A DNA stretch of 47,577 nucleotides, from positions 1 through 47,577 of IMG/VR virus record IMGVR_UViG_3300012948_000388; one strand, 5' to 3'. How positions within the stretch are numbered: position 1 is the first letter of the stretch; the number at the start of each line of letters is the position of its first letter. Source of the DNA: a virus. Lineage: Duplodnaviria; Caudoviricetes. Positions 342-47,577 of the stretch are shown one piece after another. Under the pieces are notes generated by a model. The model was not told the origin of the DNA. It saw only the letters and a list, made by a program, of their open reading frames with translations, and did no database searches. The position numbers and the translations under genes were made by a program.

Positions 342-370
342 CGCTACGGACTACAATGAAGCCAGCACCA
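313..370 (+). promoter_or_regulatory. Repeated early promoter/operator, copy 1
   Basis: TTGCAT 329-334, N17 containing CCGTAGCGCTACGG, TACAAT 352-357, GCACCA 365-370. Confidence 0.9.
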
Positions 371-397
371 CTCAGTCCACAGGAGGACTCTTCAGCG

Positions 398-1059: not shown

Positions 1060-1730
1060 GCTACCGCCTGGAGATGTGGGACCTGCGCCAGCCCGCCCCG
1101 CGCGATCCGATCTGCCTCGGCCTGCGCTTCCCGACCGCCGCCGTCGCGCGGACGCTGGCGCTCGTCTCGGCCCGCGCCTGCGTCGCGGCCGGCGACGGCG
1201 TCGCGCTACTCGGCGCCGACGGCGGCGCGACGCGCGATCTCTCCGTGGTCGACGCCGACGGCGCGACCGTGCTGCTGTACCGCGTGACGCCCAACGATCC
1301 GCCCGAGCCGCCGACGCGCCCGCTGCCCGGCGGCGGGATCGCGATCAGCGCGTTCGACCTGCTGCGCCACGCGACGCGCCTGGAGGGGGAGATGAGCGTC
1401 CCTGATCCGATCCACGCGCTCGCGATCCACCTGCGCGGCGACCCCGACCGGCCGATCACGTTCGAGGCCGACGAGGCGCGCGCGCTCCTGCACGCCGCCG
1501 TCGCCGGCGCGAGCCCGCGCGAGCGGGTGCGCGACGCCGAGCTGATCGAGGAGCTGGCCGCCGCCCTCGGCGTGCTGCTGTACGCCGCCAGCAACGAGGC
1601 CGGGATCGACCCGCAGGCGTGGCGCCAGGCCAACCGCGCGCTGCGCCACGCCGGCCGGCCGATCATCCACCCGCCCGAGGACCACGCGGCGAGCTGGCTC
1701 GCCACGCGACAGGAGATCGACAACCGATGA
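1056..1730 (+). CDS. Hypothetical protein (possible second start at ATG 1392)
   Basis: GGAGGAG RBS, ATGA overlaps at both ends. Confidence 0.7.
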   Translation: MSYRLEMWDLRQPAPRDPICLGLRFPTAAVARTLALVSARACVAAGDGVALLGADGGATRDLSVVDADGATVLLYRVTPNDPPEPPTRPLPGGGIAISAFDLLRHATRLEGEMSVPDPIHALAIHLRGDPDRPITFEADEARALLHAAVAGASPRERVRDAELIEELAAALGVLLYAASNEAGIDPQAWRQANRALRHAGRPIIHPPEDHAASWLATRQEIDNR

Positions 1731-4655: not shown

Positions 4656-4709
4656 CGCGCACCGCCCCGCGCGCATCCGCGAAAGCACCACTCGGGTAAG
4701 GAGAGACCA

Positions 4710-5218: not shown

Positions 5219-5277
5219 CGTAGCGCTGGAAATGCTTGCATTCCGTAGCGCTACGTGGTACAATGGTGCAAGCACCA
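5219..5277 (+). promoter_or_regulatory. Repeated early promoter/operator, copy 2
   Basis: TTGCAT 5236-5241, N17 with CGTAGCGCTACG, TACAAT 5259-5264, GCACCA 5272. Confidence 0.92.
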
Positions 5278-5302
5278 CACGAGAACGCAGGAGAGTCACA
5301 CG

Positions 5303-6962: not shown

Positions 6963-7008
6963 TGGTTGCATTCGGTAGCGCTACGTGGTACACTAGAGCC
7001 ATGCACCA
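6950..7008 (+). promoter_or_regulatory. Repeated early promoter/operator, copy 3
   Basis: TTGCAT 6966-6971, N17 with GTAGCGCTAC, TACACT 6989-6994, GCACCA 7003. Confidence 0.9.
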
Positions 7009-7051
7009 CGAACCGACCGGCGCCAACGGCCGGCGGGACAGGAGAGACTGG

Positions 7052-8568: not shown

Positions 8569-8769
8569 ACACCACGAGATCGCGAGCCCGTCATGCTAGC
8601 CGCTGCGCGTCCCCAGCCGGCGCCACCGCGACCGCCGACCCGCTGCGCCGCCTGCGGCGCGGCGATCGGGGCGGGGGCGACGTTCTGCGGCGGGCGGTTC
8701 TTCTGCGACTTCGGCTGCCTCGAGCGCTACCGCGACGCGCTCGCGCGCGGGGCGTCGGACCCGACCTGA
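8566..8769 (+). CDS. Treble-clef (TRASH/FCS-like) Zn-finger protein
   Basis: CAACG...FFCDFGCL. Confidence 0.65.
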   Translation: MTPRDREPVMLAAARPQPAPPRPPTRCAACGAAIGAGATFCGGRFFCDFGCLERYRDALARGASDPT

Positions 8770-10276: not shown

Positions 10277-10334
10277 CGTCGCGTGAAAATACTTGCATCC
10301 TGTAGCGCTACGTGGTACAATGGTGTTACCACCA
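10277..10334 (+). promoter_or_regulatory. Repeated early promoter/operator, copy 4
   Basis: TTGCAT 10293-10298, N17 with GTAGCGCTAC, TACAAT 10316-10321, CCACCA 10329. Confidence 0.9.
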
Positions 10335-10354
10335 CACGAACAGGAGCACACCGG

Positions 10355-11751: not shown

Positions 11752-11809
11752 CGTCGCGCGGAAAAGGTTGCATTCCGTAGCGCTACGTGGTACAATGGTG
11801 CTAGCACCA
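11752..11809 (+). promoter_or_regulatory. Repeated early promoter/operator, copy 5
   Basis: TTGCAT 11768-11773, N17 with CGTAGCGCTACG, TACAAT 11791-11796, GCACCA 11804. Confidence 0.92.
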
Positions 11810-11827
11810 AACGCACAGGAGCAACCC

Positions 11828-12569: not shown

Positions 12570-12623
12570 CGCTGGAATGCTTGCGTTCCGTAGCGCTACG
12601 TGGTACACTGGAGCCAGGCACCA
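12565..12623 (+). promoter_or_regulatory. Repeated early promoter/operator, copy 6
   Basis: TTGCGT 12581-12586, N17 with CGTAGCGCTACG, TACACT 12604-12609, GCACCA 12618. Confidence 0.9.
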
Positions 12624-12645
12624 CGCGCACAGGAGAGACAGTCTG

Positions 12646-14369: not shown

Positions 14370-14774
14370 GTGCGGGTGCCCGCCGAGCCGTTCTGCGAGC
14401 CCGCGCAGCGGGCGCTCCTGCGCACCATCCCCTGCGCCGCCGGCGTCAGCCGCGTCTGCTTCGACGCCGACGTCGTCGTCGTCGCGCCCCGCACCGGCCA
14501 CGTCGACAGCCCGAGTCTGCTGCTGACGCTGCGCCCGCGCGGGCTCAGCCTCGACGTCCACGCGCTGCGCCGCTACCTGAACGCCTTCGCCGCGCGCACG
14601 CTCGAGCACGAGGAGCTGGCGGTCGCCATCGCCTGCGACACCGCGACCGTCTGCCGCTGCCGCGTCTGGGTCGAGCTGACCTTCGTCGTCGACGAGACGA
14701 TGCAGCGCACCGTGCGCGCGCTCGGCCGCGTCGTCACCCACGACGGGCGCGCGAACGGCGGGCGCGCGCCGTGA
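14370..14774 (+). CDS. QueF-like T-fold protein lacking the catalytic Cys
   Basis: APRTGHVD (QueF CPxTGQPD), LRRYLNAF (LKLYLxSF), HEE. Confidence 0.7.
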   Translation: MRVPAEPFCEPAQRALLRTIPCAAGVSRVCFDADVVVVAPRTGHVDSPSLLLTLRPRGLSLDVHALRRYLNAFAARTLEHEELAVAIACDTATVCRCRVWVELTFVVDETMQRTVRALGRVVTHDGRANGGRAP

Positions 14775-15493
14775 CCGAGGAGATCGCGCTCCCGCTCGCG
14801 CGCGCCGTCGCGCTCGACGACCTGACGCCGCACCCCAGGAACTACCGATCCCACCCGCCGGACCAGCTCGCGCACCTGGCCGAGTCGCTGCGCGCCAACG
14901 GCCAGTACCGCAACATCGTGACCGCGCGCGACGGCACGATCCTGGCCGGCCACGGCGTCGCGCTCGCCGCGCGCCAGCTGGGCTGGACGACGGTCAGCGC
15001 GATCGCGCTCGACCTCGACGCGCACGAGCCGCGCGCGCTCAAGATCCTCGCCGGCGACAACGAGGTCGCGCACCTGGGCGAGATCGACGACCGCGCGCTC
15101 AGCGAGATCCTCAAGCAGATCCGCGACGAGGACGCCTCGGGCCTGCTCGGCACCGGCTACGACGACGCGATGCTCGCCAACCTCGTCATGATCACGCGGC
15201 CCGCCGCCGAGATCGCCGACTTCGACGCCGCCGCCGAGTGGGTCGGCATGCCCGAGTACGGCGACGGCGCGCGCGGCTCCGAGATCGTGCTGCACCTGCG
15301 CTTCGAGACGCGCGAGGACCACGCCCGCTGCCTCGAGCTGCTCGGCCTGCCGGCCTACAACCCGGCGCGCGGCCCGCGCCAGGTCGCGACCTCGACGTGG
15401 TGGCCGCCGCGCGCGCGGGCCGACGTCGGCGCGCTCGCCTTCGTCGAGGAGGACGACGACGACGATCCGTCATCCTCCGACGCCGCCGGGTGA
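14771..15493 (+). CDS. ParB/Srx N-terminal domain protein
   Basis: LTPHPRNYRSH...LAESLRANG...ILAGHG...DN. Confidence 0.88.
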   Translation: MTEEIALPLARAVALDDLTPHPRNYRSHPPDQLAHLAESLRANGQYRNIVTARDGTILAGHGVALAARQLGWTTVSAIALDLDAHEPRALKILAGDNEVAHLGEIDDRALSEILKQIRDEDASGLLGTGYDDAMLANLVMITRPAAEIADFDAAAEWVGMPEYGDGARGSEIVLHLRFETREDHARCLELLGLPAYNPARGPRQVATSTWWPPRARADVGALAFVEEDDDDDPSSSDAAG

Positions 15494-16410
15494 GCCGGCG
15501 GCTGCCGCGCTACCCCGTCTACGTCATCTCGAAGGGGCGCGCCGAGCCGGGGCTGACGGCCCGCTTCCTCGACCGCGACCGGGTGCCGTTCCGCCTCGTC
15601 GTCGAGCCGACCGAGCGCGACGAGTACGCCGCCCGCTTCGGCGCGGCGCGGCTGCACGTCCTGCCGTTCCACGACCTGGGCCAGGGCTCGATCCCGGCCC
15701 GGAACTGGGTCTGGGAGCACGCGCGCGCGAGCGGCGCGGCGCGGCACTGGATCCTCGACGACAACATCGTCGAGATCTACCGCCGCCTGCACGGCGAGCG
15801 CGTGCGCTGCCCGGCCGGGCCGGCGCTGGCGCTCGCGGAGGACTTCGCCGACCGCTACGTCAACGTCGCGATCCTCGGACTCAACTACTACTCGTTCGCC
15901 TTCGCGGCCGAGCTGCCGCCGTTCTACCTGAACCACCACGTCTACTCGTGCCTGCTGCTCGACAACGCGCTCGCGCCGCGCTGGCGTGGCCGCTACAACG
16001 AGGACACCGACCTCTGCCTGCAAGTCCTCGCCCGCGGCCTCTGCACCGTCCTCCTGAACGCCGTCGTGATCGACAAGGAGGGCACGATGACGAACAAGGG
16101 CGGCAACACGACCACGCTCTACCAGCACGACGGCCGGCTGAAGATGGCGCGCGCGCTCGAGCGCGTCTGGCCGCGCGTCGTCACCGTCGGCCGCCGCTTC
16201 GCGCGACCGCAGCACGTCGTCGCCCACGCCTGGCGCCGCTTCGACACCCCCCTGATCCCGCGCCCCGACCTGATCCGCCCGGTCGGCCACGACGAGTACG
16301 GGATGACGCTGCGCGCGCGCCGCGACGTCGCCGACGCCCACCTGCGCCGCCTGCTCGGCGAGGCGGTCCCCCCGCGCGCGCTCACCCTGGCCGGCGCGTC
16401 CGGTGGCTAA
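15490..16410 (+). CDS. TET-associated/GREB1-like glycosyltransferase, copy 1
   Basis: PVYVISKGR, RNWVW, HWILDDNI, YSCLL, WRGRYNEDTDL, KGGNT. Confidence 0.82.
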   Translation: MSRRLPRYPVYVISKGRAEPGLTARFLDRDRVPFRLVVEPTERDEYAARFGAARLHVLPFHDLGQGSIPARNWVWEHARASGAARHWILDDNIVEIYRRLHGERVRCPAGPALALAEDFADRYVNVAILGLNYYSFAFAAELPPFYLNHHVYSCLLLDNALAPRWRGRYNEDTDLCLQVLARGLCTVLLNAVVIDKEGTMTNKGGNTTTLYQHDGRLKMARALERVWPRVVTVGRRFARPQHVVAHAWRRFDTPLIPRPDLIRPVGHDEYGMTLRARRDVADAHLRRLLGEAVPPRALTLAGASGG

Positions 16411-17323
16411 GCTCCTGCCGCGCCACCCGGTCTACGTCATCTCGAAGGGACGCTGGGAGCACCCGCTGACGGCGCGCATCCTCGCGCGCGACGGCGTGCC
16501 CTTCCGCGTCGTCGTCGAGCCGCCCGAGCGCGACCGGTACGCCGCCGCCGTCGGCGCCGAGCGCCTGGCGGTCCTCCCCTTCCACGACCTGGGGCAGGGC
16601 TCGATCCCGGCGCGCAACTGGGTCTGGTCGGACGCGCTCGCGATCGGCGCGCGCCGCCACTGGATCCTCGACGACAACATCCGCGACGTCTACCGCTACT
16701 ACCGGGGCGAGCGGGTGCGCGCGCCCTGCGGCGCCGCGCTGGCGCTGATGGAGGCCTTCGTCGAGCGCTACGCCAACGTCGCGATCGCGGGGCCGAACTA
16801 CCGCTTCTTCCACGTCGGTCCCAAGCCGCCCTTCAACCTGAACCACCACGTCTACTCCTGCCTCCTGATCGACAACGCGCTCCCCTACCGCTGGCGCGGG
16901 CGCTACAACGAGGACACGGACCTGTGCCTGCAGGTGCTCGCGGGCGGGCTCTGCACGATCCTGTTCAACGCCTTCCTGATCGAGAAGGCGACGACGATGT
17001 CGATGAAGGGCGGCAACACGACGACGCTCTACCGGGGCGACGGCCGCCTCAAGATGGCGCGCAGCCTCGAGCGGATGTGGCCCGGCGTCGTGACCGTCGA
17101 CCGGCGCTGGAACCGCCCCCAGCACGTCGTCGCCCACACCTGGAAGCGCTTCGACACGCCGCTGATCCCGGCCGCCCCGCGCGCGCGCGCCGGCGACGTC
17201 GGCGCGAGCGACGAGCACGGGATGACGCTGCGCCAGCTCCGACCGTTCGACAGCGCGCGGCTGCGGCGCGTCCTCGACGGCGCGACCGAACGCCGGAACG
17301 ACGACGACGACGGAAACGCATGA
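16403..17323 (+). CDS. TET-associated/GREB1-like glycosyltransferase, copy 2
   Basis: Same motifs; collinear paralogue of 15490-16410. Confidence 0.82.
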   Translation: MAKLLPRHPVYVISKGRWEHPLTARILARDGVPFRVVVEPPERDRYAAAVGAERLAVLPFHDLGQGSIPARNWVWSDALAIGARRHWILDDNIRDVYRYYRGERVRAPCGAALALMEAFVERYANVAIAGPNYRFFHVGPKPPFNLNHHVYSCLLIDNALPYRWRGRYNEDTDLCLQVLAGGLCTILFNAFLIEKATTMSMKGGNTTTLYRGDGRLKMARSLERMWPGVVTVDRRWNRPQHVVAHTWKRFDTPLIPAAPRARAGDVGASDEHGMTLRQLRPFDSARLRRVLDGATERRNDDDDGNA

Positions 17324-17776: not shown

Positions 17777-20101
17777 GTGCCGCTCTGGCTCGACACCGCC
17801 GCGACGCTGCCCGACGACCTGATCGACGCCGCGCGCCACCGCCTGGCGCTGCGCCACGCCCGCGAGCGCGCCGGCGCGCGCGGGCCGAGCGTCGGCCGCA
17901 GCTGGCACACCGGCGACCCGCGCGACCCGGACCGCCGCCGCCGACCGGGCCGGCCCGAGCAGAAGCTGCCGCCGCCCGTCACGCCGGCCGGCGTCGAGTG
18001 GCTGGTCTGGCTGATCCTGGCCGGGCGCGGCTTCGGCAAGACGCGCGCCGGGGCCGAGGCGACGATCGACCTCGTCCAGTCGGGCGAGTGGCGCCGGCCG
18101 GCGCTGGTCGGTCAGACCGCCGCCGACGTGCGCGACGTCATGGTGCTCGGCCCGTCGGGGATCCTGGCCTGCAGCCCGCCGGCCTTCACGCCGACCTACA
18201 TCCCCGGCCAGCGGCGGCTCGTCTGGCCCAACGGCGCCGAGGCGCTGCTCTACTCGGCCGAGCGTCCGGACCGGCTGCGCGGGCCGGGGCACGACGGCGC
18301 CTGGGTCGACGAGCTGGCGGCCTGGCGCTACCTCGACTCGTACGAGCAGGTCCAGTTCGTCTTGCGCGAGGGGCGCAACCCGCGCCTGATCGCGACGACG
18401 ACGCCGCGCCCGATCCGGCTGATCCGCGAGCTGGTGACCGAGCCGACGACCTACGTCACGCGCGGCACGACCTACGACAACCTCGAGAACCTGCCGCCCA
18501 GCTTCGCGCGCCGCGTCGTCGCCCGCTACGAGGGCACGCGCCTCGGCCGGCAGGAGCTGTACGCCGAGATCCTCGACGACCTCGAGGGCGCCTACTGGAC
18601 GCTCGCCCTGATCGACGCCGCGCGCGTGCGCGACGTCCCGCGCGCGATCGACGGCCGGCCGCTCCTGGCCCGCGTCGTCGTCGCGGTCGACCCGGCCGGT
18701 CGAAGCGGCGACGAGAACGACCAGACCGGCCTCGCGGTCGCGGGACGCGGCCTCGACGGCCACCTCTACGTGCTCGCGGCCGAGGGCGTGCGCCTCAGTC
18801 CGCGCGGCTGGGCGTCGCGCGCGCTCGACCTCTACGACGAGTGGGCGGCCGACAAGATCCTGGCCGAGCGCAACAACGGCGGCGACATGGTCGAGGCGAC
18901 GATCCGGTCGGTGCGCCTGACCGCCCCGGTCGAGACGATCCACGCCAGCCGGGGCAAGGTCGTGCGCGCCGAGCCGGTCGCGGCGCTCTACGAGCAGGGG
19001 CGCGTCAGCCACGTCGGCCGCCTCGACGCCCTCGAGCAGCAGCAGTGCTTCCCCGCCGAGACGGTCGTCGACGCGCCCGACCTCGTCGCCGCGTTACGCC
19101 GGCTCTACACGGGCGAGTTGATCGAGGTCGATACGACGCGCGGAACACTCGTCGGCACGCCCAATCATCCGGTGCTGACCGAGAACGGCTGGGATGCACT
19201 GGAGACTATCCGGCCGGGGTCTCGTCTATACTACGCCGATGCCCTCCCCGGTCGGGACGCGCCCGCACTTCGTCACCGACGACCAATTGGCGACGTTCAC
19301 GCGGCTCTACCGATCGGGCGCGACGCGCGAGGCGATCGCGGCCGAGACGGGATTGAGCCTGCCGTCCGTCAAGTACCTGGCCTACCGTGGTCGCGCGGGA
19401 TTCCGTCCGACCTACGGCGACCGCATCGCGCTCAAGCCGGTGCTCTTGACGCCGATGGAGCTGGCCTACGTGGCCGGGATCGTCGACGGCGAGGGCTCGG
19501 TCGGCTTCTGGCGGAACCGACGACGCAACAAGGTCAAGCCGATCGTTCGCGTCGCCAACACCTCGACGGAGCTACTCGATTGGCTGCGCCCGCGCCTGGG
19601 CGAGCGCGACGTCCTCGTGACGCGGCAGACGCGGCTGGCGAGCAATCGGTTGATGTGGACGCTCGCCGTTCAGGGGCTGGGCTACCTCCCGCTCTACGAG
19701 GCGCTGCTGCCGCTCCTGATCGTCAAGCGGCGGCAGATGACGCTCGTCGTCGAGTGGACGCGCCTGCGCCGAGCCGATCAGATCCCGCAGCCGACGACCC
19801 CGCGCGAGTGCGCGCTGGTCGAGGCGGTCGCGCTCCTGAACCAGCGCGCGTCACCGCTGTCCGACGACGCGCGGTCAGCGCTCTTCCGGTCTACAACCTG
19901 CGCACCGAGCGTGGCTGGTACGTCGCCGACGGCGTGATCGTCCACAACTGCTCGTTCCCCGTCGACCCCGACGCGGGCGACGACCTCGTCGACGCGGCCG
20001 TCTACGCCCTGACCGCGCTCGTCGAGCCGGCCGCGAACCCGCTCGCCGGCGTCGTCGCCGTCGGCCGCGCGCGCGGCTGGCAGCCCCGCCGCGCCGGCTA
20101 A
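17777..20101 (+). CDS. terL: Terminase large subunit with intein
   Basis: Walker A AGRGFGKT, Walker B AWVDE, TTTP, nuclease motifs VAVDP and DDLVDA. Confidence 0.96.
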   Translation: MPLWLDTAATLPDDLIDAARHRLALRHARERAGARGPSVGRSWHTGDPRDPDRRRRPGRPEQKLPPPVTPAGVEWLVWLILAGRGFGKTRAGAEATIDLVQSGEWRRPALVGQTAADVRDVMVLGPSGILACSPPAFTPTYIPGQRRLVWPNGAEALLYSAERPDRLRGPGHDGAWVDELAAWRYLDSYEQVQFVLREGRNPRLIATTTPRPIRLIRELVTEPTTYVTRGTTYDNLENLPPSFARRVVARYEGTRLGRQELYAEILDDLEGAYWTLALIDAARVRDVPRAIDGRPLLARVVVAVDPAGRSGDENDQTGLAVAGRGLDGHLYVLAAEGVRLSPRGWASRALDLYDEWAADKILAERNNGGDMVEATIRSVRLTAPVETIHASRGKVVRAEPVAALYEQGRVSHVGRLDALEQQQCFPAETVVDAPDLVAALRRLYTGELIEVDTTRGTLVGTPNHPVLTENGWDALETIRPGSRLYYADALPGRDAPALRHRRPIGDVHAALPIGRDARGDRGRDGIEPAVRQVPGLPWSRGIPSDLRRPHRAQAGALDADGAGLRGRDRRRRGLGRLLAEPTTQQGQADRSRRQHLDGATRLAAPAPGRARRPRDAADAAGEQSVDVDARRSGAGLPPALRGAAAAPDRQAAADDARRRVDAPAPSRSDPAADDPARVRAGRGGRAPEPARVTAVRRRAVSALPVYNLRTERGWYVADGVIVHNCSFPVDPDAGDDLVDAAVYALTALVEPAANPLAGVVAVGRARGWQPRRAG
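19227..19241 (+). promoter_or_regulatory. Putative internal leaderless promoter for the nested endonuclease
   Basis: TATACT 19227-19232, 6 nt, ATG 19239. Confidence 0.6.
19239..19937 (+). CDS. HTH + single-motif LAGLIDADG homing endonuclease nested in the +1 frame of the intein
   Basis: LYRSGATREAIAAETGLSLPSV (HTH), LAYVAGIVDGEGSV, VANTSTELLDWL, LLPLLIVKRRQ. Confidence 0.88.
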   Translation: MPSPVGTRPHFVTDDQLATFTRLYRSGATREAIAAETGLSLPSVKYLAYRGRAGFRPTYGDRIALKPVLLTPMELAYVAGIVDGEGSVGFWRNRRRNKVKPIVRVANTSTELLDWLRPRLGERDVLVTRQTRLASNRLMWTLAVQGLGYLPLYEALLPLLIVKRRQMTLVVEWTRLRRADQIPQPTTPRECALVEAVALLNQRASPLSDDARSALFRSTTCAPSVAGTSPTA

Positions 20102-38584: not shown

Positions 38585-40237
38585 GTGAGCACGCTGACGC
38601 CGAAGCTGGGCTTGTACGTGATCGAGGACTCGGACGACGCCAACGCGGCCGTCAAGACGATGCACAACGCCGACGTCACCAAGCTCGACGAGGCGGTGCT
38701 CTTGACGGCGGCGCAGACCTTGACGAGCAAGACGCTGACGAGCCCGACGATCAACGGCGGGACGCTCGACGGTACGTTCGGCGGCACCTTCACGCTGACG
38801 TCGCCCACGCTGGCGTCGCCGATCATCACGGGCCGCGTCCTGGGCGACTTCTCGAACGCGACGATCGCGAACAGGGTGCTGTTCAAGACGACGACGGTCA
38901 ACGCCAACACGGCCGTCGGCGCGATCCCGGACGGCACCGGCACGGCCGCCTACGTCATCGTCTACGGATCGTCGAGCCCGGACAACGCCGCGTTCGTCCA
39001 GCTCGCCGGAACGCAGGCGGCCGGTCACTACATCAACTCGGACAGGCTCGGCACCGGCACCCTTCAGCCGTTCGACCTGCGGATGAGCGGCGGCGCGGCG
39101 CTGCGCGTGCAGACGAGCGGTGGCGTCACGCTGCTCGGCACGGCCGATCCGGGGGCGGGTCAGCTGCGGATCGAGGGCAACGTGGCGCTCACCGGCTCGA
39201 TTCCGGCCTGGGGCGCGGGCTACCGCACGATCGCGCTCAACAGCAACATCGGCCTGACGGCCAATCCGGCCGGCGGCGGCGCGTACGTGACCCGCAACGC
39301 CTACTGGGATGGGTCGTACTGGCGCTACATCTCGGCCGACACGGCCGAGATCTTCCAGCTGACGGGCGGCGTCCACTACTTCCTCTCCGCGACGTCGGGC
39401 TCGGCCGGCGCGCAGATGCTCGGCAACCTGGCGACGCGGATGCTGGTGAGCAACAACGGCACCGTCACCGTCGGCAGCGCCTCGTCGGGCTCCAGCTTCA
39501 TGACGATCGGCGTCTGCGTCGACCAGGGCACGGGCGGCAACGAGGTGCTCACGCTCAAGGGAACCGGCGGGGTCGCGCACGGGATGACCAACTACGCCGA
39601 CAGCGCGACGTTCCTCGCGATCTACAAGGCGGGGACCGGCGGCGGTGGCATGCTGCGCGGGGTCGCCAGCGGCGCGACCGGCGTCTTCTTGCAGACCTTC
39701 TGCGGGACCGACGACTCGTCGAAGTCGACCAGCTCGGCGGGCTGGGTCATGATGGACGGCTACAAGAACGCGCCGCCGACGATCGCGGCGCCGATCGCCA
39801 ACCAGAACGCCTTCGTCGTCAAGGCCAACTCGCTGACCCGCTTCATGGTCGACAACGAGGGCGACATCTACGCCGACGCGGGCTCGGGCACCGCCAACAG
39901 CGGGACGGGCTACTTCACCTACGACGAGCACGAGGACGCCGAACTGGTGCGCGCGCTCGACGTCGAGCGCCGCGCGCCGCGCCTGGTCCGCTCGCGCTTC
40001 GACGCCTTCCTGCGCTACGGCCGGCCGGCGCTGGAGGCGGCGCGGATCGCGACGTTCAACGACGGGCCGGGCGGCGACGGCTCGGTCTTCGTGAACTACT
40101 CGGCGCTGGCGCGTCTGCACTCGGGGGCGATCTGGCAGCAGCACACCCGGACGGTGGCGCTCGCCGAGCGCGTCGCCGCCCAGGCCGCCCGGATCGACGC
40201 GCTCGAGGCGCGGCTCGCGCTGCAAGGAGGGAGCTAG
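38585..40237 (+). CDS. Tail fibre with C-terminal intramolecular-chaperone-like coiled coil
   Basis: QTLTSKTLTSPTI, Gly/Thr-rich; VNYSAL...IDALEARL. Confidence 0.75.
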   Translation: MSTLTPKLGLYVIEDSDDANAAVKTMHNADVTKLDEAVLLTAAQTLTSKTLTSPTINGGTLDGTFGGTFTLTSPTLASPIITGRVLGDFSNATIANRVLFKTTTVNANTAVGAIPDGTGTAAYVIVYGSSSPDNAAFVQLAGTQAAGHYINSDRLGTGTLQPFDLRMSGGAALRVQTSGGVTLLGTADPGAGQLRIEGNVALTGSIPAWGAGYRTIALNSNIGLTANPAGGGAYVTRNAYWDGSYWRYISADTAEIFQLTGGVHYFLSATSGSAGAQMLGNLATRMLVSNNGTVTVGSASSGSSFMTIGVCVDQGTGGNEVLTLKGTGGVAHGMTNYADSATFLAIYKAGTGGGGMLRGVASGATGVFLQTFCGTDDSSKSTSSAGWVMMDGYKNAPPTIAAPIANQNAFVVKANSLTRFMVDNEGDIYADAGSGTANSGTGYFTYDEHEDAELVRALDVERRAPRLVRSRFDAFLRYGRPALEAARIATFNDGPGGDGSVFVNYSALARLHSGAIWQQHTRTVALAERVAAQAARIDALEARLALQGGS

Positions 40238-40549
40238 ATGACCGTCGGCTACAACGCCCAGCTGACCAAGGGGACCATCGACGCGCAGCTCGGCTCGATC
40301 AGCCAGCGGCTGAACATCGTGCTGGAGGACGTGAACGACTTCAAGTACTTCATCGACGGCATCCTGGACGCGCAGCTCACCGGCATGGGCTACGACGCGA
40401 ACGACGTCGCCCTGATCCGCACGGCCGCGTCCGACATGGACCAGCTGCGCGAGATCTACCAGGGACTCGCCGCGCTCGCCGCCGTCAAGGACTTCCGCAC
40501 CTTCATCAGACGCGTGTGGGGCACGGGCTACAGCGGCGTCGGCGTCTAG
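40238..40549 (+). CDS. Hypothetical protein (tail-associated)
   Basis: AGGAGG RBS. Confidence 0.75.
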   Translation: MTVGYNAQLTKGTIDAQLGSISQRLNIVLEDVNDFKYFIDGILDAQLTGMGYDANDVALIRTAASDMDQLREIYQGLAALAAVKDFRTFIRRVWGTGYSGVGV

Positions 40550-40560
40550 GAGGCGAGGCG

Positions 40561-40899
40561 ATGGGCGAGGCGAACGGGCGGCGGCGTCAGACGGCCGCGG
40601 CGGTCGCGGCGGGACAGCCCGCCGAGGTGGCGCTCGGCGAGCGGAGCGCGCGGCGCCTCTCGGCCTTCCTCAGCGCGGCGCAGGGCGCCGAGATCGTGGC
40701 GCAGGCGGCGGCGCAGCAGGCGAAGGCGGTGGCCGAGAAGTACCAGGAGGCGGTCGCGGCCGTGCTCGACGTCCACGGCGTCGTCCTCACGCCCGAGATC
40801 GAGGTGCGCTTCGACCCGGACCGGGGGCTGCTCGTCGTCGGGCGGCGGGAGTCGGCGCCGCCGCCGCCGGCCGTCGTCGCGCCGGCGCCGGTCGGCTAG
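40561..40899 (+). CDS. Hypothetical coiled-coil protein
   Basis: GAGG RBS. Confidence 0.7.
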   Translation: MGEANGRRRQTAAAVAAGQPAEVALGERSARRLSAFLSAAQGAEIVAQAAAQQAKAVAEKYQEAVAAVLDVHGVVLTPEIEVRFDPDRGLLVVGRRESAPPPPAVVAPAPVG

Positions 40900-40910
40900 G
40901 GAGGGACGCC

Positions 40911-41078
40911 GTGAGCGCGACCGAGATGGACTTCTGGCGCGCGCTCTCGGACGCGTGGCTGCCCGTCGTCGTCGTCGTCGCCGGGCTGATCGCCGCCGCG
41001 CTCGGGCTGCGCGGACAGCGGCGCAAGCGGCGGCGCCGGCGCACGACGACGACGACGCCACCGTCGCGCGAGAACTGA
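40911..41078 (+). CDS. 55-aa single-TM protein with basic tail (holin-like; absent from the ORF track)
   Basis: GGAGG RBS; WLPVVVVVAGLIAAALGL-RGQRRKRRRR; directly before the endolysin. Confidence 0.6.
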   Translation: MSATEMDFWRALSDAWLPVVVVVAGLIAAALGLRGQRRKRRRRRTTTTTPPSREN

Positions 41079-41081
41079 GCC

Positions 41082-42635
41082 GTGCTGAGTCAGGGCTTCG
41101 TGCTGCTCTCGGATCAGGACAGCGACGCGCCGGCGACGCCGTGCGTCGCGACCGTCTCGAAGGACGACGCCTGGGACCACGGCGCGCTCGCGCTCGGCCA
41201 GGCGGCGGCGGCCGACGGGCGGCTCTGGTGCGACCGGCCGTACTTCACCGGCAACCCCGAGCCGAGCTGGCTGGTGCTTCGGCTCGATCGCTGCACCGGC
41301 GTCGGCGGCCTGGCCCAGGTCGGCAATGAGCAGAACCTGCCGCTCGAGGGCTGGGTCGGCGGGCGCGACGAGTGGTTCGCGTTCGAGGACACGGTGCGGC
41401 GGCAGGCGCGCCACCCCGAGCGGCTGCTCGCGATGCCGCCGAGCCCGGGCATGCCCGACTGGACGTCGTGGGTGCGCGACGTGGGCGCCGACGGGCGCCC
41501 GCTCGATCACGCGGTCCACGCCTACGGGTCGTTCGCCGAGATGCGCGACGTCGTCGCGTGGTACCTGGCGCGCACGTCGGGGCGGATCGCGGTCACCGAG
41601 TGCAACTTCGCCGCCGGCCGGACGGTCGACCGCGACGCCTGGGCGAACGCCGAGCTTTTGCCCTTCCTCGACTGGTGCGCCGGCGAGGCGCGGATCGTCG
41701 TCGTGAGCTACTTCGCCTGGCGGTGGCGCAGCCCCGACGCGGCGCTGGCGACGCCGCTCGACGCGGCCGGGACGGCGATCGAGACGGTGATCCGGGACTG
41801 GCGGCCGCCACCGGACGGCGGCGAGGAGGTCGCGGTGCTCGAGGGCGTGGACGCCTCGAACTGGCAGGGAGCGGTCGACTGGGGCGCGGTCGCGGGCGCG
41901 GGGCGCCGCTTCGCGATCGTCAAGGCGAGCGAGGACGGCGGCTACCGCGACCCGACCTTCGCGACGAACTGGGCCGCGATCAAGGAGAGCGGGTTGACGC
42001 GCGGGGCGTACCACTTCGCGCGGCCGAGCCGGGTCGAGCCGGCGGCGAGCGTCGCGCTCCTGCGCGAGCAGCTGGCGGCGGCGGGCGGGCTCGCGAGCGG
42101 CGATCTGGTCGCGCTCGACTTCGAGGACACCGAGGTCGCGCCGACGGCCCAGCTGGAGCGGTGGGCGCTCGACTGGCTCGCGGCGGCCGAGGCGGCGCTG
42201 GGCGTGCGCCCGCTCTTCTACTCGGGGACGTGGTACACCGGGCCGCACGGCTGCGACACGCCGGCGCTGGCGACCTACCCGCTCTGGCTGGCGGCCTACC
42301 AGGAGGCGCGGCCGGACCCGCCGCCGAGCTGGTCGTCGATCGCGATCTGGCAGTACAGCGCCCACGGGAGCGTCCCCGGCGTCTCGGGCGACTGCGACCT
42401 GAACCGCTTCCTGGGCGACGCGGCGGCGCTGGCGGCGCTCGGCTACGCCGGGGGTGCGGCGCCGCCGGCGTCGGACGTCGCGGCGCTGCAGGACACGACC
42501 TGGGGGCTGGCCGATCAGCTGCAGGCGGTCGCGGGTGACTGGCACGCCGCCGGCTGGCCCTCGATGGGGAGCGGGGTCGCGGCGGCGGCCGAGGCGGTCA
42601 AGACGATGGTGCGGTCGAGCAAGGGCGAGCGCTAG
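41082..42635 (+). CDS. Endolysin: GH-A-clan-like domain + GH25 muramidase
   Basis: GNEQN/VHAYG/VTECN; GVDASNWQG, VKASE, GAYHF, LDFE, WQYS, DCDLN. Confidence 0.88.
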   Translation: MLSQGFVLLSDQDSDAPATPCVATVSKDDAWDHGALALGQAAAADGRLWCDRPYFTGNPEPSWLVLRLDRCTGVGGLAQVGNEQNLPLEGWVGGRDEWFAFEDTVRRQARHPERLLAMPPSPGMPDWTSWVRDVGADGRPLDHAVHAYGSFAEMRDVVAWYLARTSGRIAVTECNFAAGRTVDRDAWANAELLPFLDWCAGEARIVVVSYFAWRWRSPDAALATPLDAAGTAIETVIRDWRPPPDGGEEVAVLEGVDASNWQGAVDWGAVAGAGRRFAIVKASEDGGYRDPTFATNWAAIKESGLTRGAYHFARPSRVEPAASVALLREQLAAAGGLASGDLVALDFEDTEVAPTAQLERWALDWLAAAEAALGVRPLFYSGTWYTGPHGCDTPALATYPLWLAAYQEARPDPPPSWSSIAIWQYSAHGSVPGVSGDCDLNRFLGDAAALAALGYAGGAAPPASDVAALQDTTWGLADQLQAVAGDWHAAGWPSMGSGVAAAAEAVKTMVRSSKGER

Positions 42636-42644
42636 AGTCGAGCG

Positions 42645-43523
42645 ATGGCGCGGACGCGCGGCGTGGCGGGTGCCCTCGGGACGGCGCTGGTCGACGAGCC
42701 GGCGACCCACGTCGTCGCCGGCGGCGTGCTCGCGGTCGCGCTCTGGCTGCTGCTGGTCGCCTCGGCCCAGGTGCCGGCCGTGCGCGCCGTGATCGGTCCG
42801 GCGCCGAGCGACGACTGGTGGCGTCGGGAGGGCGCGGCCGAGGAGGAGACGCGGATCGCCGCGTCGGCGGAATCGGTCCGCGACGACTGGATGCGGGAGG
42901 CGACGACGGCGGCGACGCTGCTCGCGCCCGTGGTCGAGGGGCGGCTGATGCCGGACCACGACGACGAGACGACGGGCACCACCAGCGATCCCGCGACGCG
43001 CGCGCCGACGCTCGCGGGCGGTGCCGGGACGGCGACGCTGGCGGCGCCGATCGTCGCGTCGTCGTCGTCGGTCCCAGCGGGCGGTCAGCCGTCGGCGCTC
43101 GGCGTGGCACCGGGCGCGGGCTCGGTCACGGGAAGCGTCGTCCAGCGCGCACCCGACGCGTTCGCGCCGGTCGTCTCTCAGCCGATCGTGACGGCGACGC
43201 CCTGGCCGTCGACGAACGCGCCGCCGCCGATCGCGACGCCCGTCGTCGTCCCGGCGGTCCCGGTCGTCGTCCCGCCACCGGCGCCGCCCGCGCAGCCGCT
43301 CCCCGTTCCGGCGGTCGGCACGCCGCCCGCGCCGACCGCCGCGCCAGCACCACCGACGCGGGCGTCGCCACCGGCGCCACGACCGCCCCCGACCGCGCGA
43401 CCGCCACCGGCGCCGACGCCCGCGCCGCCGCCCGCGAGCGGACCGGGCAAGAGCAAGAACGGCCCGCCCGGGCCGACGGGCAACCCCAACCACGGCCGCG
43501 CGCCGCCCGGCAAGGGCAGGTGA
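42645..43523 (+). CDS. Membrane-anchored Pro-rich protein
   Basis: N-terminal TM helix, long P/A/T-rich tail. Confidence 0.6.
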   Translation: MARTRGVAGALGTALVDEPATHVVAGGVLAVALWLLLVASAQVPAVRAVIGPAPSDDWWRREGAAEEETRIAASAESVRDDWMREATTAATLLAPVVEGRLMPDHDDETTGTTSDPATRAPTLAGGAGTATLAAPIVASSSSVPAGGQPSALGVAPGAGSVTGSVVQRAPDAFAPVVSQPIVTATPWPSTNAPPPIATPVVVPAVPVVVPPPAPPAQPLPVPAVGTPPAPTAAPAPPTRASPPAPRPPPTARPPPAPTPAPPPASGPGKSKNGPPGPTGNPNHGRAPPGKGR

Positions 43524-43526
43524 GAC

Positions 43527-43841
43527 GTGGAGGGGGTGCAGCTGACCGGCACGACGATGACGGTCGTGGTCGCCGTGATCGGCAGCCTGGCGGGCGCGAT
43601 CTCGTACCTCCTGAAGGCGCTCCTGGCGGCCAAGGACGTCCAGATCGCCTCGGTGACGCGCGAGATGGAGCAGCAGCGCGCGGTGATGATCGCCCAGATC
43701 GAGACGCTGAAGCTCGACCGCGACTACTTCCGCGAGCTGGTGATGGGCGAGCGCGCCGCGCGGTCGCGGCGCCGGCCGACGGCCGAGGAGGACGACGACG
43801 ACGCGACGCCGGGCGGTCCGCGCCGCCTCGACCGTCGATAA
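43527..43841 (+). CDS. Holin-like TM + coiled-coil protein
   Basis: TVVVAVIGSLAGAISYLL then coiled coil; end of the lysis block. Confidence 0.65.
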   Translation: MEGVQLTGTTMTVVVAVIGSLAGAISYLLKALLAAKDVQIASVTREMEQQRAVMIAQIETLKLDRDYFRELVMGERAARSRRRPTAEEDDDDATPGGPRRLDRR

Positions 43842-43884
43842 CGCGGACTCGTCAGCCGGGGCGCGCGTGCGCTAGTATCGGTGC

Positions 43885-44065
43885 TGCCTGCGTGGTGCTG
43901 GTGCGCCGCGTCGGGACGCCACGGGCTTTAGGCGTGGCCGACGCGCCGCGACGGGCCGGACGGTTCCGCAGCTCCTGTCGGGACCGCGCCGGCCCGTCGA
44001 ACGCCCGGGGCTTGACGATAAGTCAGCGCCGACGCGCCAGGATCGCGCCAGGACGTCGCCAGGCG
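43885..44065 (+). ncRNA. Candidate structured small RNA (3' end approximate)
   Basis: TAGTAT -10 at 43873-43878; stems 43907-43914/43938-43945 and 43949-43959/43989-43999 with nested stems; sits in a convergent gap. Confidence 0.5.
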
Positions 44066-44102
44066 CGGAACGTCTGATTTGGTGTCCCCGCGCGCGGGAT
44101 CG

Positions 44103-44360
44103 TCAGATCCCGCGCGAACGTCGTCCACGCGACGGCGGGCGCGATCTGGCACGAGGGCGCGGCTCGACGAGGACCGAGAGGTCGAGCGTCAAGAGGCAGC
44201 CGTCGAAGGCGTACGGAATCGGCTGATCGGCGACGCCGGCGACGGCGAGGTAGCCCTCGTCGTCGATCGCGACGAGCGCGATGACGGTCGGCTTGATCTC
44301 GCTGAGGAGCGCGCGCAGGCGCGGGTCGACGTCGGACGCGCTCACCAGGCGCGCCACCAC
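44103..44360 (-). CDS. Hypothetical protein
   Basis: GC3-biased ORF continuing the leftward operon. Confidence 0.6.
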   Translation of the reverse strand: MVARLVSASDVDPRLRALLSEIKPTVIALVAIDDEGYLAVAGVADQPIPYAFDGCLLTLDLSVLVEPRPRARSRPPSRGRRSRGI

Positions 44361-44860
44361 GGACGGGCGCGGCGCGCGGTTCGTAGCGTCTCGAGCGCGG
44401 CGCGCAGCTGATCGCGCTCGGCGCGCAGCTGGTCGCGCTCGCTCTCGGCGCGGACGGCGCGCTCGGCGGTCGCGCGGCTCTCGGCGGCGACGCGCTCGAT
44501 CGCGGCGCCGACCTCGCGCGCGAGCACGAGCGCGGGGGCCGACGCGCGAGCCGCCAGGTCAGCGACCGTCACGTCACCGGGCGTTACGTCACACGCGCGG
44601 TCGATCGCCGTCACGTCACCGGGCGTCACGTCACCGACGCCGTTCAGCGCCGTCACGACACGCGCCGTCACGTCGTCGTCGACCCAGACCTCGAACGTCA
44701 TGCCCTGCGGGCGCTCGACGACGCGGAACGCCGTCAGCTCGCCGCGATGGATCGCGCGCCGCAGCTGGTGCGCCGGCCGGCCGAGGTAGGGCGCGGCCTG
44801 ACGCAGCGGCAGGTAGCGTCCGGCGCGCGCGCCGTCGGAACGCGGACTCGTCTCGGTCAT
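44342..44860 (-). CDS. HTH + coiled-coil protein with C-terminal RPWW motif (partition-like)
   Basis: YLPLRQAAPYLG..LRRAIHRGEL; AESERDQLRAERDQLRAALE; RPWWRAW; TGcTACACT promoter at 44889-44881. Confidence 0.75.
   Translation of the reverse strand: MTETSPRSDGARAGRYLPLRQAAPYLGRPAHQLRRAIHRGELTAFRVVERPQGMTFEVWVDDDVTARVVTALNGVGDVTPGDVTAIDRACDVTPGDVTVADLAARASAPALVLAREVGAAIERVAAESRATAERAVRAESERDQLRAERDQLRAALETLRTARRARPWWRAW
44568..44671. repeat. Intragenic GTCAC repeat array
   Basis: About nine GTCAC units, several as CGTCACGTCACCG. Confidence 0.75.
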
Positions 44861-44890
44861 CGGCGGGGAGGAGCGCGGCGAGTGTAGCAC

Positions 44891-44962
44891 GTCACCGGCG
44901 GTCACCTGTGACGTGACGTCACCTCCGTCGCGTGCGGTGACGTGACGTGACGTCACCGTCAC
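44891..44962. repeat. Intergenic GTCAC/GTGAC array (10 units in 72 bp)
   Basis: Units at 44891, 44901, 44908, 44913, 44918, 44937, 44942, 44947, 44952, 44958. Confidence 0.85.
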
Positions 44963-44972
44963 GTGGCGCGCC

Positions 44973-45173
44973 TCAGATCAGGCGCGGACCGCGCGCCGAC
45001 CAGCCGACGACGATCCAGACGCGACCGCAGCGTGGCGTCGTGCAGATGAAGCGGTCGGCGGCGCGCGGATCGGTCACGCGCCGCAGCGGGTGACGGCAGT
45101 CGGGGCACTGCCAGGGCGTGGGTTCCCAGTCGCGCGCGAGCGCGGCGCGCTCGTCGGGGCGCAGCGCGCTCAC
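44973..45173 (-). CDS. Zn-ribbon protein
   Basis: CPDC...FICTTPRCG; GTGA overlap. Confidence 0.65.
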   Translation of the reverse strand: MSALRPDERAALARDWEPTPWQCPDCRHPLRRVTDPRAADRFICTTPRCGRVWIVVGWSARGPRLI

Positions 45174-45604
45174 CGCCGCCGTTCCTTTCGACGAGCGACG
45201 GCAGCGCGATTGCACGCGCGGCAGTGGCGCACGAGATGACCACGTCTAAGACAGACGTAGGTGTTGTCGTCGTCGAACGGATGCCCGTTGACGCAGTGCG
45301 TCTTCTTGGCGTTCAGGGCCGGAAGTCCATTGCTTCGCAGCGTGTTGAGACGAGGGGTAACCGCTTCGAGATGGGCCGGATTGACGCAGGCTCGGTTGCG
45401 GCATAGATGATCGATCTCCAGCCCTTCCGGAATCGGCCCGAACGCGAGCTCGTACGCAATGCGGTGGGCCCCTAGTACGCGACGACCGACGCCGACCTGT
45501 CCGTATCCCCCGCTATCGAGCTTTCGTCGCCACTCCCAGCATCCCGACGGCATGCGCTCGCTGTTGTCGGTCAGACGCTCGGACAGCGGCTTGAAGGGAG
45601 GCAT
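45170..45604 (-). CDS. HNH homing endonuclease
   Basis: GCWEW..GYG..AHRIAY..DHLCRNRACVNPAHLE..KTHCVNGH; lower GC than its neighbours. Confidence 0.92.
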   Translation of the reverse strand: MPPFKPLSERLTDNSERMPSGCWEWRRKLDSGGYGQVGVGRRVLGAHRIAYELAFGPIPEGLEIDHLCRNRACVNPAHLEAVTPRLNTLRSNGLPALNAKKTHCVNGHPFDDDNTYVCLRRGHLVRHCRACNRAAVARRKERRR

Positions 45605-45837
45605 TAGCGTCGCCAGCCGAGCAGGCGGCGCGCGCGGACGACGGCCGTCTCGAGCGCGTCCAGATCGGCGGCCAGGTGGGCGGCCGTGATCGTGCGTCGA
45701 ACGCCGTCGATCGACGCCTCGACGTCGGGCAGCGGGATCCGCTCCTGGACCGCGACGCGCTGCAGGGCGCAGAACGCGGTCGCGGCCGAGGTCAGCCGCT
45801 CGAGGTCGTCGCGGTCGACCCGGACGGCGCGGCTCAC
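45604..45837 (-). CDS. Hypothetical helical protein
   Basis: GTGA overlap with the repressor, TAATG coupling to the HNH. Confidence 0.7.
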   Translation of the reverse strand: MSRAVRVDRDDLERLTSAATAFCALQRVAVQERIPLPDVEASIDGVRRTITAAHLAADLDALETAVVRARRLLGWRR

Positions 45838-46625
45838 CCGGCGCGGACCGCGATCTCGGGCCGGGGGTTGCCGGATCGGCGGGTCGCGTCGGCGGCGGCG
45901 AGCAGCTCGGCGACCGGGGTCGCGCCGCGCGCGACGCGCTGGCGCCGCTCGACGACGACGCCGACGACGCGCGAGGTCACCGCCCGGTCGACGGCGCCGT
46001 CGGGGTCGGCGATCACGGGGCGGCCGTCGCGGGCGCCGACGACGCGGCGCACGAAGAGCGTGCCGCGCCCGCGCACGAGCACGAGGTCGCCCAGGCGCGG
46101 GGCGGCGTCCTGGTCGACGACGGCGTCGTCGCCGTCGCGCAGCTGGGGCGCGAAGCCGTCGCCGGCGACCGCGACGACGAGCAGCTTGTGCCCCTCCTCG
46201 CCCGGCTGCGGGGCGTAGATCCAGAAGGTGGGCGCGGCCTCGCCGGCGCGGCGGATCGAGGCCGCCGTCGTCGAGGCCGGCGTCGGCGGTCGCGGCAGCG
46301 CGACGGGCAGGTGGTGGCGCACGAGCAGCGCCAGCTCGCTGAGCAGCGCGCGCGGGTCGGGGCCGCGCGCCGGGCCGGCGGCGTTCATCAGCGCCCAGAC
46401 CGGGACGTCCAGCTCGGCGGCGATGCGGTGGACGAAGCTCGCGCGCGGGTCGGCGATCTGACCGGACTCGAGCCGGCTCATGACGCTCGGGCTGACGCCG
46501 ACCCGGTGGGCGAGCAGCGCCTGGGACAGGCCGCGCTCCTCGCGCCAGCGCTTGACCTCGGCGCCGATGCGCGCCGTCGGACCGGGCTCGGTCGTGCTGG
46601 GGATCGACTCCTTGCGCGTGGACAC
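45834..46625 (-). CDS. CI-like repressor (XRE HTH + degenerate S24 domain)
   Basis: VKRWREERGLSQALLAHRVGVSPSVMSRLESG; VAGDGFAP.LRDGD..VVD..GDLVLV..FVRR; GGAGGAGG RBS. Confidence 0.85.
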   Translation of the reverse strand: MSTRKESIPSTTEPGPTARIGAEVKRWREERGLSQALLAHRVGVSPSVMSRLESGQIADPRASFVHRIAAELDVPVWALMNAAGPARGPDPRALLSELALLVRHHLPVALPRPPTPASTTAASIRRAGEAAPTFWIYAPQPGEEGHKLLVVAVAGDGFAPQLRDGDDAVVDQDAAPRLGDLVLVRGRGTLFVRRVVGARDGRPVIADPDGAVDRAVTSRVVGVVVERRQRVARGATPVAELLAAADATRRSGNPRPEIAVRAG

Positions 46626-46739
46626 GACGACGGTGACCTCCTCCTCCGCGCTCCCGTGCCGCGAGCGCACGACCGCGTTGGCGGCCGGCATCCCGCGCGC
46701 CGGCCGGACAGTCACGCGCCGCGACGCCGCGACGAGGCG

Positions 46740-46811
46740 ATGGTAACAGCGCCGCGCCGTGCGGGGCAATACTGCGCGCGCTGTCAAGTAGTTGACGGAA
46801 CGACGTATAAT
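46740..46811. promoter_or_regulatory. Divergent switch control region
   Basis: TATAAT 46806-46811 (+); TTGCCC-N18-TACCAT (-); inverted repeat GTCAA-gtag-TTGAC 46783-46796. Confidence 0.6.
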
Positions 46812-46855
46812 ACGCTCGGCCTTTGACGGCGCCCGACGAAGGAGGACCAACGATC

Positions 46856-47119
46856 GTGCCCCCATCCACGCTCACCATGCGGACCCGGCGCATGCTCGCG
46901 ATCGAGCAGGCGCACGGGCAGCCGATCGACAAGCTGCTGGTCGCGCTGGTCAACCGGACCGGCTCGCTCGCCGGCGCGGCGGCCGAGCTGGGGATCCCGA
47001 CCTCGACGGCGCGGCTCTGGTGCTGGCGCCTGGGGATCCTGCTCTCGACGCGGCGCTCGGTGACGGCGGCGATGACGCTGCGCGAGCGGGCGCGGCAGGA
47101 GCGGGCGCGATCGGCGTAG
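46856..47119 (+). CDS. Cro-like HTH protein
   Basis: AAGGAGG RBS; SLAGAAAELGIPTSTARLW; divergent from the CI-like gene. Confidence 0.75.
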   Translation: MPPSTLTMRTRRMLAIEQAHGQPIDKLLVALVNRTGSLAGAAAELGIPTSTARLWCWRLGILLSTRRSVTAAMTLRERARQERARSA

Positions 47120-47256
47120 GATCGGCGTAGACTAGGCGACCGCGCCGCCGCCCGTGCGGCGCGCCGCCGAGCATTCCCGGACACCAACGGGACGTTGCGG
47201 GCAAGACACGGGGCCGGGGGGGCGGCCACCACGACGGACGAATAGGAGCACCACGG

Positions 47257-47577
47257 ATGCAGGACGAGACGAAACGGTTCTGGATGAGACCCAGCGTCGG
47301 ACCGATGACGGACGGCGCGATCACGCGGGGCGGCTGGTGGTTACGCGACGGACCGCCGGCTGACCGCGATCCGGGAGAGACCTGGATCGGCGACGACGAG
47401 ATGGCGCACACGAGCGCGCTGGGGTTCAAGCTGCTGATGTCGCTGCGCAGCGACTTCGTCACCGGGCGCGTCTCGCCGGCGACACCGGAGGAGGTCGCGG
47501 CGCGCTTGACCATCCCCGGTGACCGCGTGAGCGTCGCGCACGCTCGACGCGCCGTCGCCGAGCTGATCGCGAGCGGC
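47257..47577 (+). CDS. Partial winged-HTH protein, possible replication initiator
   Basis: AGGAG RBS; open to the window end; SPATPEEVAARL..ARRAVAELIASG. Confidence 0.5.
   Translation, partial: MQDETKRFWMRPSVGPMTDGAITRGGWWLRDGPPADRDPGETWIGDDEMAHTSALGFKLLMSLRSDFVTGRVSPATPEEVAARLTIPGDRVSVAHARRAVAELIASG

Follow-up and report, generated by a model that had tools for sequence, protein, structure and literature searches.

The window, i.e. the whole stretch of 47,577 nucleotides analysed here, is a 47.6-kb part of the genome of an uncultured soil phage with 74% GC. Its genes run from small early genes through terminase, portal, capsid, tail and endolysin to a holin-like gene (stop at 43841), and a leftward operon begins with a CI-like HTH/S24 repressor gene and ends at 44103. 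The 260-bp gap between the late operon and the leftward operon is occupied by the candidate unit discussed below, which begins 45 nt past the holin-like stop, on the late strand and just after the lysis genes. A metagenome scan with the repeated early promoter retrieved a second contig (L126), whose final 100 bases are identical to positions 1-100 of the window and which is therefore treated as the adjoining piece of the same phage; L126 was covered without its first 1.8 kb, and the motif counts given below refer to 60.8 kb. The two integrase-family genes on L126 indicate that the phage is temperate, and the CI-like repressor in the window further supports this lifestyle. The capsid protein of the window is also found on a 64,375-nt contig. 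Across the unit, no variants were seen in one DNA sequencing run, possibly the source run; the listing of sequencing runs showed no RNA run that contains this phage. In the cI/cro control region (46716-46912) the source run carries a second version with 23 differences over 196 nt, pointing to a related phage in the sample.

Other parts of the window have features of their own. Ahead of the terminase gene, positions 14370-17323 hold a QueF-like gene, a ParB-N gene and two tandem genes, 81% identical to each other, that match a glycosyltransferase-annotated PHROG; this is likely a DNA-modification cluster. The terminase large subunit (17777-20101, 774 aa) has no match to G001, the nearest relative, over roughly residues 423-691, which suggests an inserted element, e.g. 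an intein. On the minus strand, positions 44342-44960 encode a 172-aa protein with an HTH-like N-terminus and a coiled-coil-like C-terminus, which has no close homologue and a short match in G001. Repeats of GTGAC/GTCAC are numerous within this gene and also surround its promoter, which is of the extended -10 type (44886); gene and repeats resemble an autoregulated single-protein partition module. The pattern TGAC-N5-GTCA is found twice in or around the gene and once in hairpin H3 of the unit.

The unit is preceded by a putative promoter on the plus strand (43849..43878), in which the -35-like hexamer TCGTCA (a 4/6 match) stands 18 bp upstream of the -10 hexamer TAGTAT. The match is weak: the promoter scan made no call at TAGTAT, which is one of 22 TAnnnT hexamers (at least 4/6) on the plus strand, and the GTAGCGCTAC box of the early promoters is missing. 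The -10 box named by the sequence-only reading is indeed found at 43873-78 and is followed by GCCTGCGTGGTGCTGG at 43886-901 (plus strand), referred to here as seed A, which is rich in G and U and mirrors the leader tag (A)GCACCAC. Further along the plus strand, folding predicts hairpins H1 (43907..43945, with alternative folds), H2 (43949..43999, present in every fold computed) and H3 (44006..44031, with the core TGAC-GATAA-GTCA). The perfect 11-bp stem described earlier for H2 was recovered at 43949-59/43989-99, as was the nested 8-bp stem, one pair of which is G.U. The tip of H2 carries a second mirror, seed B (GCTCCTGT, 43971..43978, plus strand). Three CGCCAGG repeats (44033..44064, plus strand) are predicted to base-pair with seed A and so hide it, and a terminator-like hairpin with a U-containing tail was found by the terminator scan at 44060..44086. 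The hairpin itself (44060-76) is the sole plus-strand terminator call within 40000-47577, and TAGTAT and this hairpin bracket a possible RNA, about 195 nt long (43886..44081, plus strand, presumed ends), between the holin-like stop at 43841 and the leftward-operon stop at 44103. An 11-bp hairpin predicted over the stop of the leftward gene (44090..44117) probably signals the end of the two convergent operons. The sequence-only reading had missed that TAGTAT can also serve as 5′ arm in a G.U-rich stem with seed A (43867..43906, plus strand; 14 bp, of which 6 are G.U pairs), formable only in a read-through RNA.

Folding of 43873-44075 is more stable than that of shuffled sequences (z -3.9), in agreement with the structured RNA proposed earlier, and 43842-44135 scores z -4.4 on the plus strand against -2.9 on the minus strand. 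In a coarse genome scan with 12 shuffles per window the region ranks 8th of 791 windows; it is therefore strongly but not uniquely structured. Hairpins H1-H3 have no U tract, and the features of an intrinsic terminator (a GC hairpin plus a U tract) are found only at 44060-76. Such a layout could arguably be read as a cluster of terminator or stability elements between convergent operons, in which the mirrors would be relics or chance (seed A being either an inverted remnant of a leader cassette or a promoter-proximal GGTGC(T) motif in triplicate) and the tags would have been kept as C/A-rich translation enhancers. The site does lie between two convergent stops, it holds the terminator-like 44060-76 and the hairpin at 44090-117, its folding is not unique in the genome, and ACA motifs by themselves enhance translation, as described in a part of PMC3879156. 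We regard this explanation as unlikely; 290 nt of hairpins would far exceed what termination needs.

The sequences mirrored by the unit belong to a family of early promoters, six of which lie in the window (338, 5245, 6975, 10302, 11777 and 12590), with the form TTGCRT-17-TACAMT and GTAGCGCTAC in the spacer; three of them have a second GTAGCGC upstream of the -35. Three more early-type promoters, unseen by the sequence-only reading, lie on L126 and two of these carry GTAGCGCTAC, giving 8/9 overall. An Arc-like gene on L126 (5540-6172; phrog_582, a weak match at E 0.05), with a copy of GTAGCGC over its own -10-like site, is likely to encode the reader, or repressor, of the GTAGCGCTAC box. G001 has six similar repeated early promoters with no common leader tag (reverse orientation; 690, 6375, 10697, 11865, 13861 and 16243; TTGCAY..ACAC(C/G)TGC-TA(T/C)ACT), and a further similar -10 context just past its lysis genes, at about 45638.

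The leader matches to seed A that had been listed at 362, 5271, 7003, 11803, 12618, 4684 and 47247 were all verified. The target leaders, all on the plus strand, are those of genes 398 (364..386, with A and B tags), 5303 (5271..5293), 7052 (7003..7044), 10355 (10328..10347), 11828 (11803..11822) and 12646 (12618..12635). The leader of gene 10355 has an A tag of only 6 bp and a B tag of 8 bp; the corresponding sixth promoter (10316), with CACCAC only, had been omitted from the earlier list. A promoterless start with A-like and B tags precedes gene 1727 (1699..1715, plus strand), and tags are also found at four other starts without a promoter box, namely gene 4710 (A tag, 4684..4691, plus strand), gene 47257 (47242..47263, plus strand, a B tag and then an A tag reaching to the start codon), L126 1397 and L126 12122, the last with A-B-A within 25 nt. 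The tags at promoterless starts point to a role in RNA rather than in promoter DNA. Most of the predicted target genes have no family assigned.

Among 46,872 16-mers from both strands of the window, 43886-43901 is the top locus against the 5′ ends of the six leaders, and seed A ranks first or second among 12-mers, according to where +1 is placed, in a ranking that is partly circular because the unit had been picked for that very match. The full 15-mer, at up to 3 mismatches, has 7 matches, which is borderline above chance (6 of 100 shuffles reach 7). GTGGTGC occurs once on the plus strand of the 60.8 kb versus 20 occurrences of GCACCAC, and 11 of these 20 fall inside the start windows, which cover 11% of the sequence. 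At least seven Watson-Crick pairs to seed A are found at 14 of the 65 early or other starts versus none of the 30 late starts (p 0.003).

The strand count bears on a reading at the DNA level. Short dyads lie across the predicted start site at window positions 5264-5277, 10321-10334 and 11796-11809 and at L126 10029-10043; they amount to 5-7 bp over +1 at four of the nine promoters, one of them very different in sequence (TGCTTG/CAAGCA), with a 4-bp dyad at a fifth promoter and dyads of similar kind in G001. Accordingly, GCACCA might be one half of a dyad TGGTGC-N-GCACCA over the start site to which a protein binds or which initiation requires, and the TGGTGC copies after TAGTAT might be half-sites under the same control. 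This is very improbable given that no left half accompanies the tags at promoterless starts, that the strand bias is 20 to 1, that the separate palindrome GTAGCGCTAC is already operator-like, and that seed B would be left unexplained.

Seed B had escaped the sequence-only reading. It complements ACAGGAG(C), the Shine-Dalgarno variant that forms the ribosome-binding tag of the early leaders, and although recognised after the fact in a unit that had itself been chosen for seed A, it ranks 3 among window 12-mers; CTCCTGT has two occurrences on the plus strand of the 60.8 kb. At least seven Watson-Crick pairs to seed B are made by 11/65 early or other starts and 0/30 late starts (p 0.011), but this contrast is lost once G.U pairs are allowed (18/65 versus 6/30, p 0.30). 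Both tags are present at 10 of 95 starts, with B counted with G.U pairs; in these tag counts, as in the whole-RNA ranking below, a few gene starts are off by 1-2 nt and their windows slightly shifted. As far as sequence is concerned, the two tags are confined to the starts of early or other non-late genes, and late gene starts carry neither.

With the three L126 leaders held out as targets, seed A ranks 2 and seed B ranks 7 of 119,554 12-mers; each is first among plus-strand 12-mers, and three of the six loci ahead of seed B are target sites read backwards. One of the three held-out leaders has no A tag and one has a G.U change. Because the nine leaders are copies of one cassette, they are not independent, and the held-out test speaks for conservation of the tags rather than for full independence. 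When dinucleotide shuffles of the unit were compared with the nine leaders, seed A was matched in 5 of 2684, seed B in 4 and both in none. The complementarity of the unit to the early leaders is not chance, and the unit is a real, non-random feature. For a mere cluster of terminators, the reverse of 43873-906 does align with the leader cassettes slightly above background (scores 28-29 versus 26), as a leftover cassette might; such a cluster would nevertheless need two mirrors within 196 nt, one of them exactly at a hairpin tip, a combination that occurred in 0/2684 shuffles.

Predicted structure complicates the use of seed A. It is paired in all eight transcript models, at a cost of 8-19 kcal/mol to open, and its partner differs between models: the CGCCAGG repeats on the 3′ side, an arm close by, or the -10 region. 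Opening seed B costs 4.4 kcal/mol in every model, read-through included. The ranking of targets depends on the measure used. Raw duplex energy shows no enrichment of leaders for seed A (p 0.50) or for a 16-nt seed B (p 0.54). When only the seed is scored, together with the accessibility of the target, the six leaders rank 2, 4, 5, 6, 8 and 13 of 69 for seed A, with the start of 47257 first, and 1, 3, 4, 6, 7 and 16 for seed B. With the whole RNA and both accessibilities, nine leaders rank 8-78 of 95 (p 0.19; read-through form p 0.43), in a calculation that scores one contact at a time and cannot represent two-site binding; as it does not favour leaders, this ranking sits well with the terminator cluster. 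The earlier expectation that the GCACCA leaders would rank above background targets is thus borne out when only the seed and the accessibility of the target are scored, and not with raw duplex energy or whole-RNA accessibility. Likewise, of the proposal that a small RNA silences the early regulon by seed pairing, the non-chance complementarity holds and has been joined by a second, anti-Shine-Dalgarno seed, but a simple free 5′ seed is not supported, seed A being paired in all predicted folds.

The same antisense action may also be timed differently, if the late (lysis) transcript supplies the RNA, as its 3′ end or through cleavage, and early genes are shut off late in infection; seed B would then do the work and seed A would be masked by the upstream arm. 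The location of the unit on the late strand, 45 nt from the holin-like stop, the weakness of the promoter and the low cost of opening seed B even in the read-through form are in line with such an origin. It is nonetheless a distinctly unlikely one, since seed A would be hidden in a 14-bp stem and left unexplained, and an intergenic TAGTAT stands 7-8 nt ahead of seed A.

On balance, it is probable, by a modest measure, that 43886-44081 encodes a trans-acting antisense RNA of about 195 nt which lowers the translation of early genes and is C4- or GcvB-like in action without being an Rfam member; the case is built on one genome and on an RNA predicted from its sequence. Transcription of this antisense RNA would be driven by TAGTAT and stop at the 44060-76 hairpin. 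Seed B, which is lightly paired, would contact the Shine-Dalgarno sequence first; seed A, once unmasked, would then invade, and ribosome loading would be blocked. Seed A precedes seed B in the unit, just as the A tag precedes the B tag in the targets, and this parallel order makes a single continuous duplex impossible. Because the putative promoter has no GTAGCGCTAC box, it would escape early repression and be active in the lysogen. The RNA would therefore be made while the early promoters are repressed, mopping up leaky or incoming early transcripts, and may keep early and replication genes shut by a second route, in addition to the protein repressors. A stronger version holds that this is a regulon-wide two-seed RNA that reads the 5′ bases of transcripts together with a private Shine-Dalgarno variant, silences at least ten early or replication starts and is switched by its origin, i.e. 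armed when made from its own promoter and masked by the -10 arm in read-through from the lysis operon; this version is speculative and we hold it to be unlikely.

Searches for relatives of the unit have returned little. The structured RNA put forward by the sequence-only reading fell into no Rfam family at gathering score, with 7 weak matches at E up to 10 and none of the C4 type. A blastn search against 50,697 phage records gave 12 short matches and no true homologue, a plasmid blastn search with the unit gave no match, and pattern scans of viral sequences gave 0, 0, 50 (none folding or looking alike) and 2 matches (inside coding DNA). The metagenome scan returned only the window contig and L126. 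The closest capsid relatives are 65-68% identical, 10 of 21 new capsid loci were examined at whole-record level, and 11 capsid-related phage records had no DNA match to the unit beyond short ones. A single-sequence covariance model, a tool of low sensitivity, run over 852,830 bases recovered the source only, and a holin alignment led to one phage, an unrelated one. In the 11 relatives, a generic tag-and-mirror scan found only Shine-Dalgarno-like 7-mers; it is an insensitive scan, which in the present phage found seed B and not GCACCAC. In the literature covered, which includes few subscription papers, no description was found of a regulon-wide phage antisense RNA of this kind.

Several other identities were considered and set aside. 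Neither ARAGORN nor Rfam made a tRNA or tmRNA call on the unit, and a tRNA reading was dropped for want of an ARAGORN call. An attP site was rejected, as the integrase genes are on L126, far from the unit. C4 antisense RNA is processed by RNase P at a tRNA-like stem, and in the unit a 7-bp stem followed by GCCA (43908-14/44029-39) might suggest an RNase P substrate; its probability over the full transcript is 0.014, however, and comparable stems accompany 16 of the 331 RCCA sites of the window, which is not above chance. A resemblance to an HDV-like ribozyme was also set aside; H2 is nested and Rfam gave nothing. The start of a minus-strand gene was rejected because no start codon follows, and the loop of H1 as a third seed (pairing with the starts at 8593 and 17777) was set aside as post hoc. 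A VIPR guide was rejected on the spacing of GGT, which is 14 and 6 and not 5.

A VIPR-like locus does occur on L126 (1397-3620), with a 178-aa gene followed by a 253-aa protein that has a RAMP-type glycine loop near its end and whose nearest Atlas clusters are unnamed viral proteins. These are followed by about 900 bp of non-coding DNA with a 5-nt periodicity and units starting CCGAC. This layout fits VIPR systems as presented in part of bioRxiv 10.64898/2026.04.26.720920, although on the plus strand the pentamer does not have the GGY/NN form. The start of this operon bears both tags of the candidate RNA.

Known phage RNAs offer partial parallels. C4 of P1/P7 (Rfam C4) and the related P4 CI RNA, as outlined in sections of PMC5320573 and PMC12197685, resemble the RNA proposed for the unit in being phage RNAs that act in trans on phage mRNA through two short complementary segments, directed at the ribosome site and upstream of it. 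Specifically, in C4 the b′ segment covers the ribosome site, and a′ binds upstream and gives specificity (in the same section of PMC5320573); the P4 CI RNA is also treated in part of PMC3632133. C4 is about 77 nt with three stem-loops, exposes its segments in loops, targets an antirepressor mRNA and confers immunity, whereas the unit has no Rfam match, three predicted arms over about 135-195 nt, a seed B predicted to be lightly paired at a hairpin tip, a seed A predicted to be paired, and ten or more early starts as predicted targets. Among host RNAs, GcvB has a seed that is G/U-rich, like seed A. Like the predicted RNA of the unit, GcvB is a single RNA with many mRNA targets, where it pairs with a C/A-rich motif that lies directly 5′ of the Shine-Dalgarno sequence (in the portion of PMC3879156 concerned with it). 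GcvB is an enteric host RNA to which the unit has no sequence or Rfam match; in the unit, the seed complementary to C/A-rich leaders is predicted to be buried, there is an extra anti-Shine-Dalgarno loop, and the predicted targets belong to the phage itself. P22 sar and lambda OOP are cis-encoded, with one target each (ant and cII). Both are phage antisense RNAs that tune lysis-lysogeny genes, and the phage antisense RNAs acting on phage genes that are reviewed in the relevant part of PMC12197685 have one target each. The unit differs from sar and OOP in its short seeds and its many distant predicted targets. If the proposal is true, an RNA reading a tag built into many early starts would constitute a master switch made of RNA, on top of the protein repressors, and would account for phages conserving start-associated tags.
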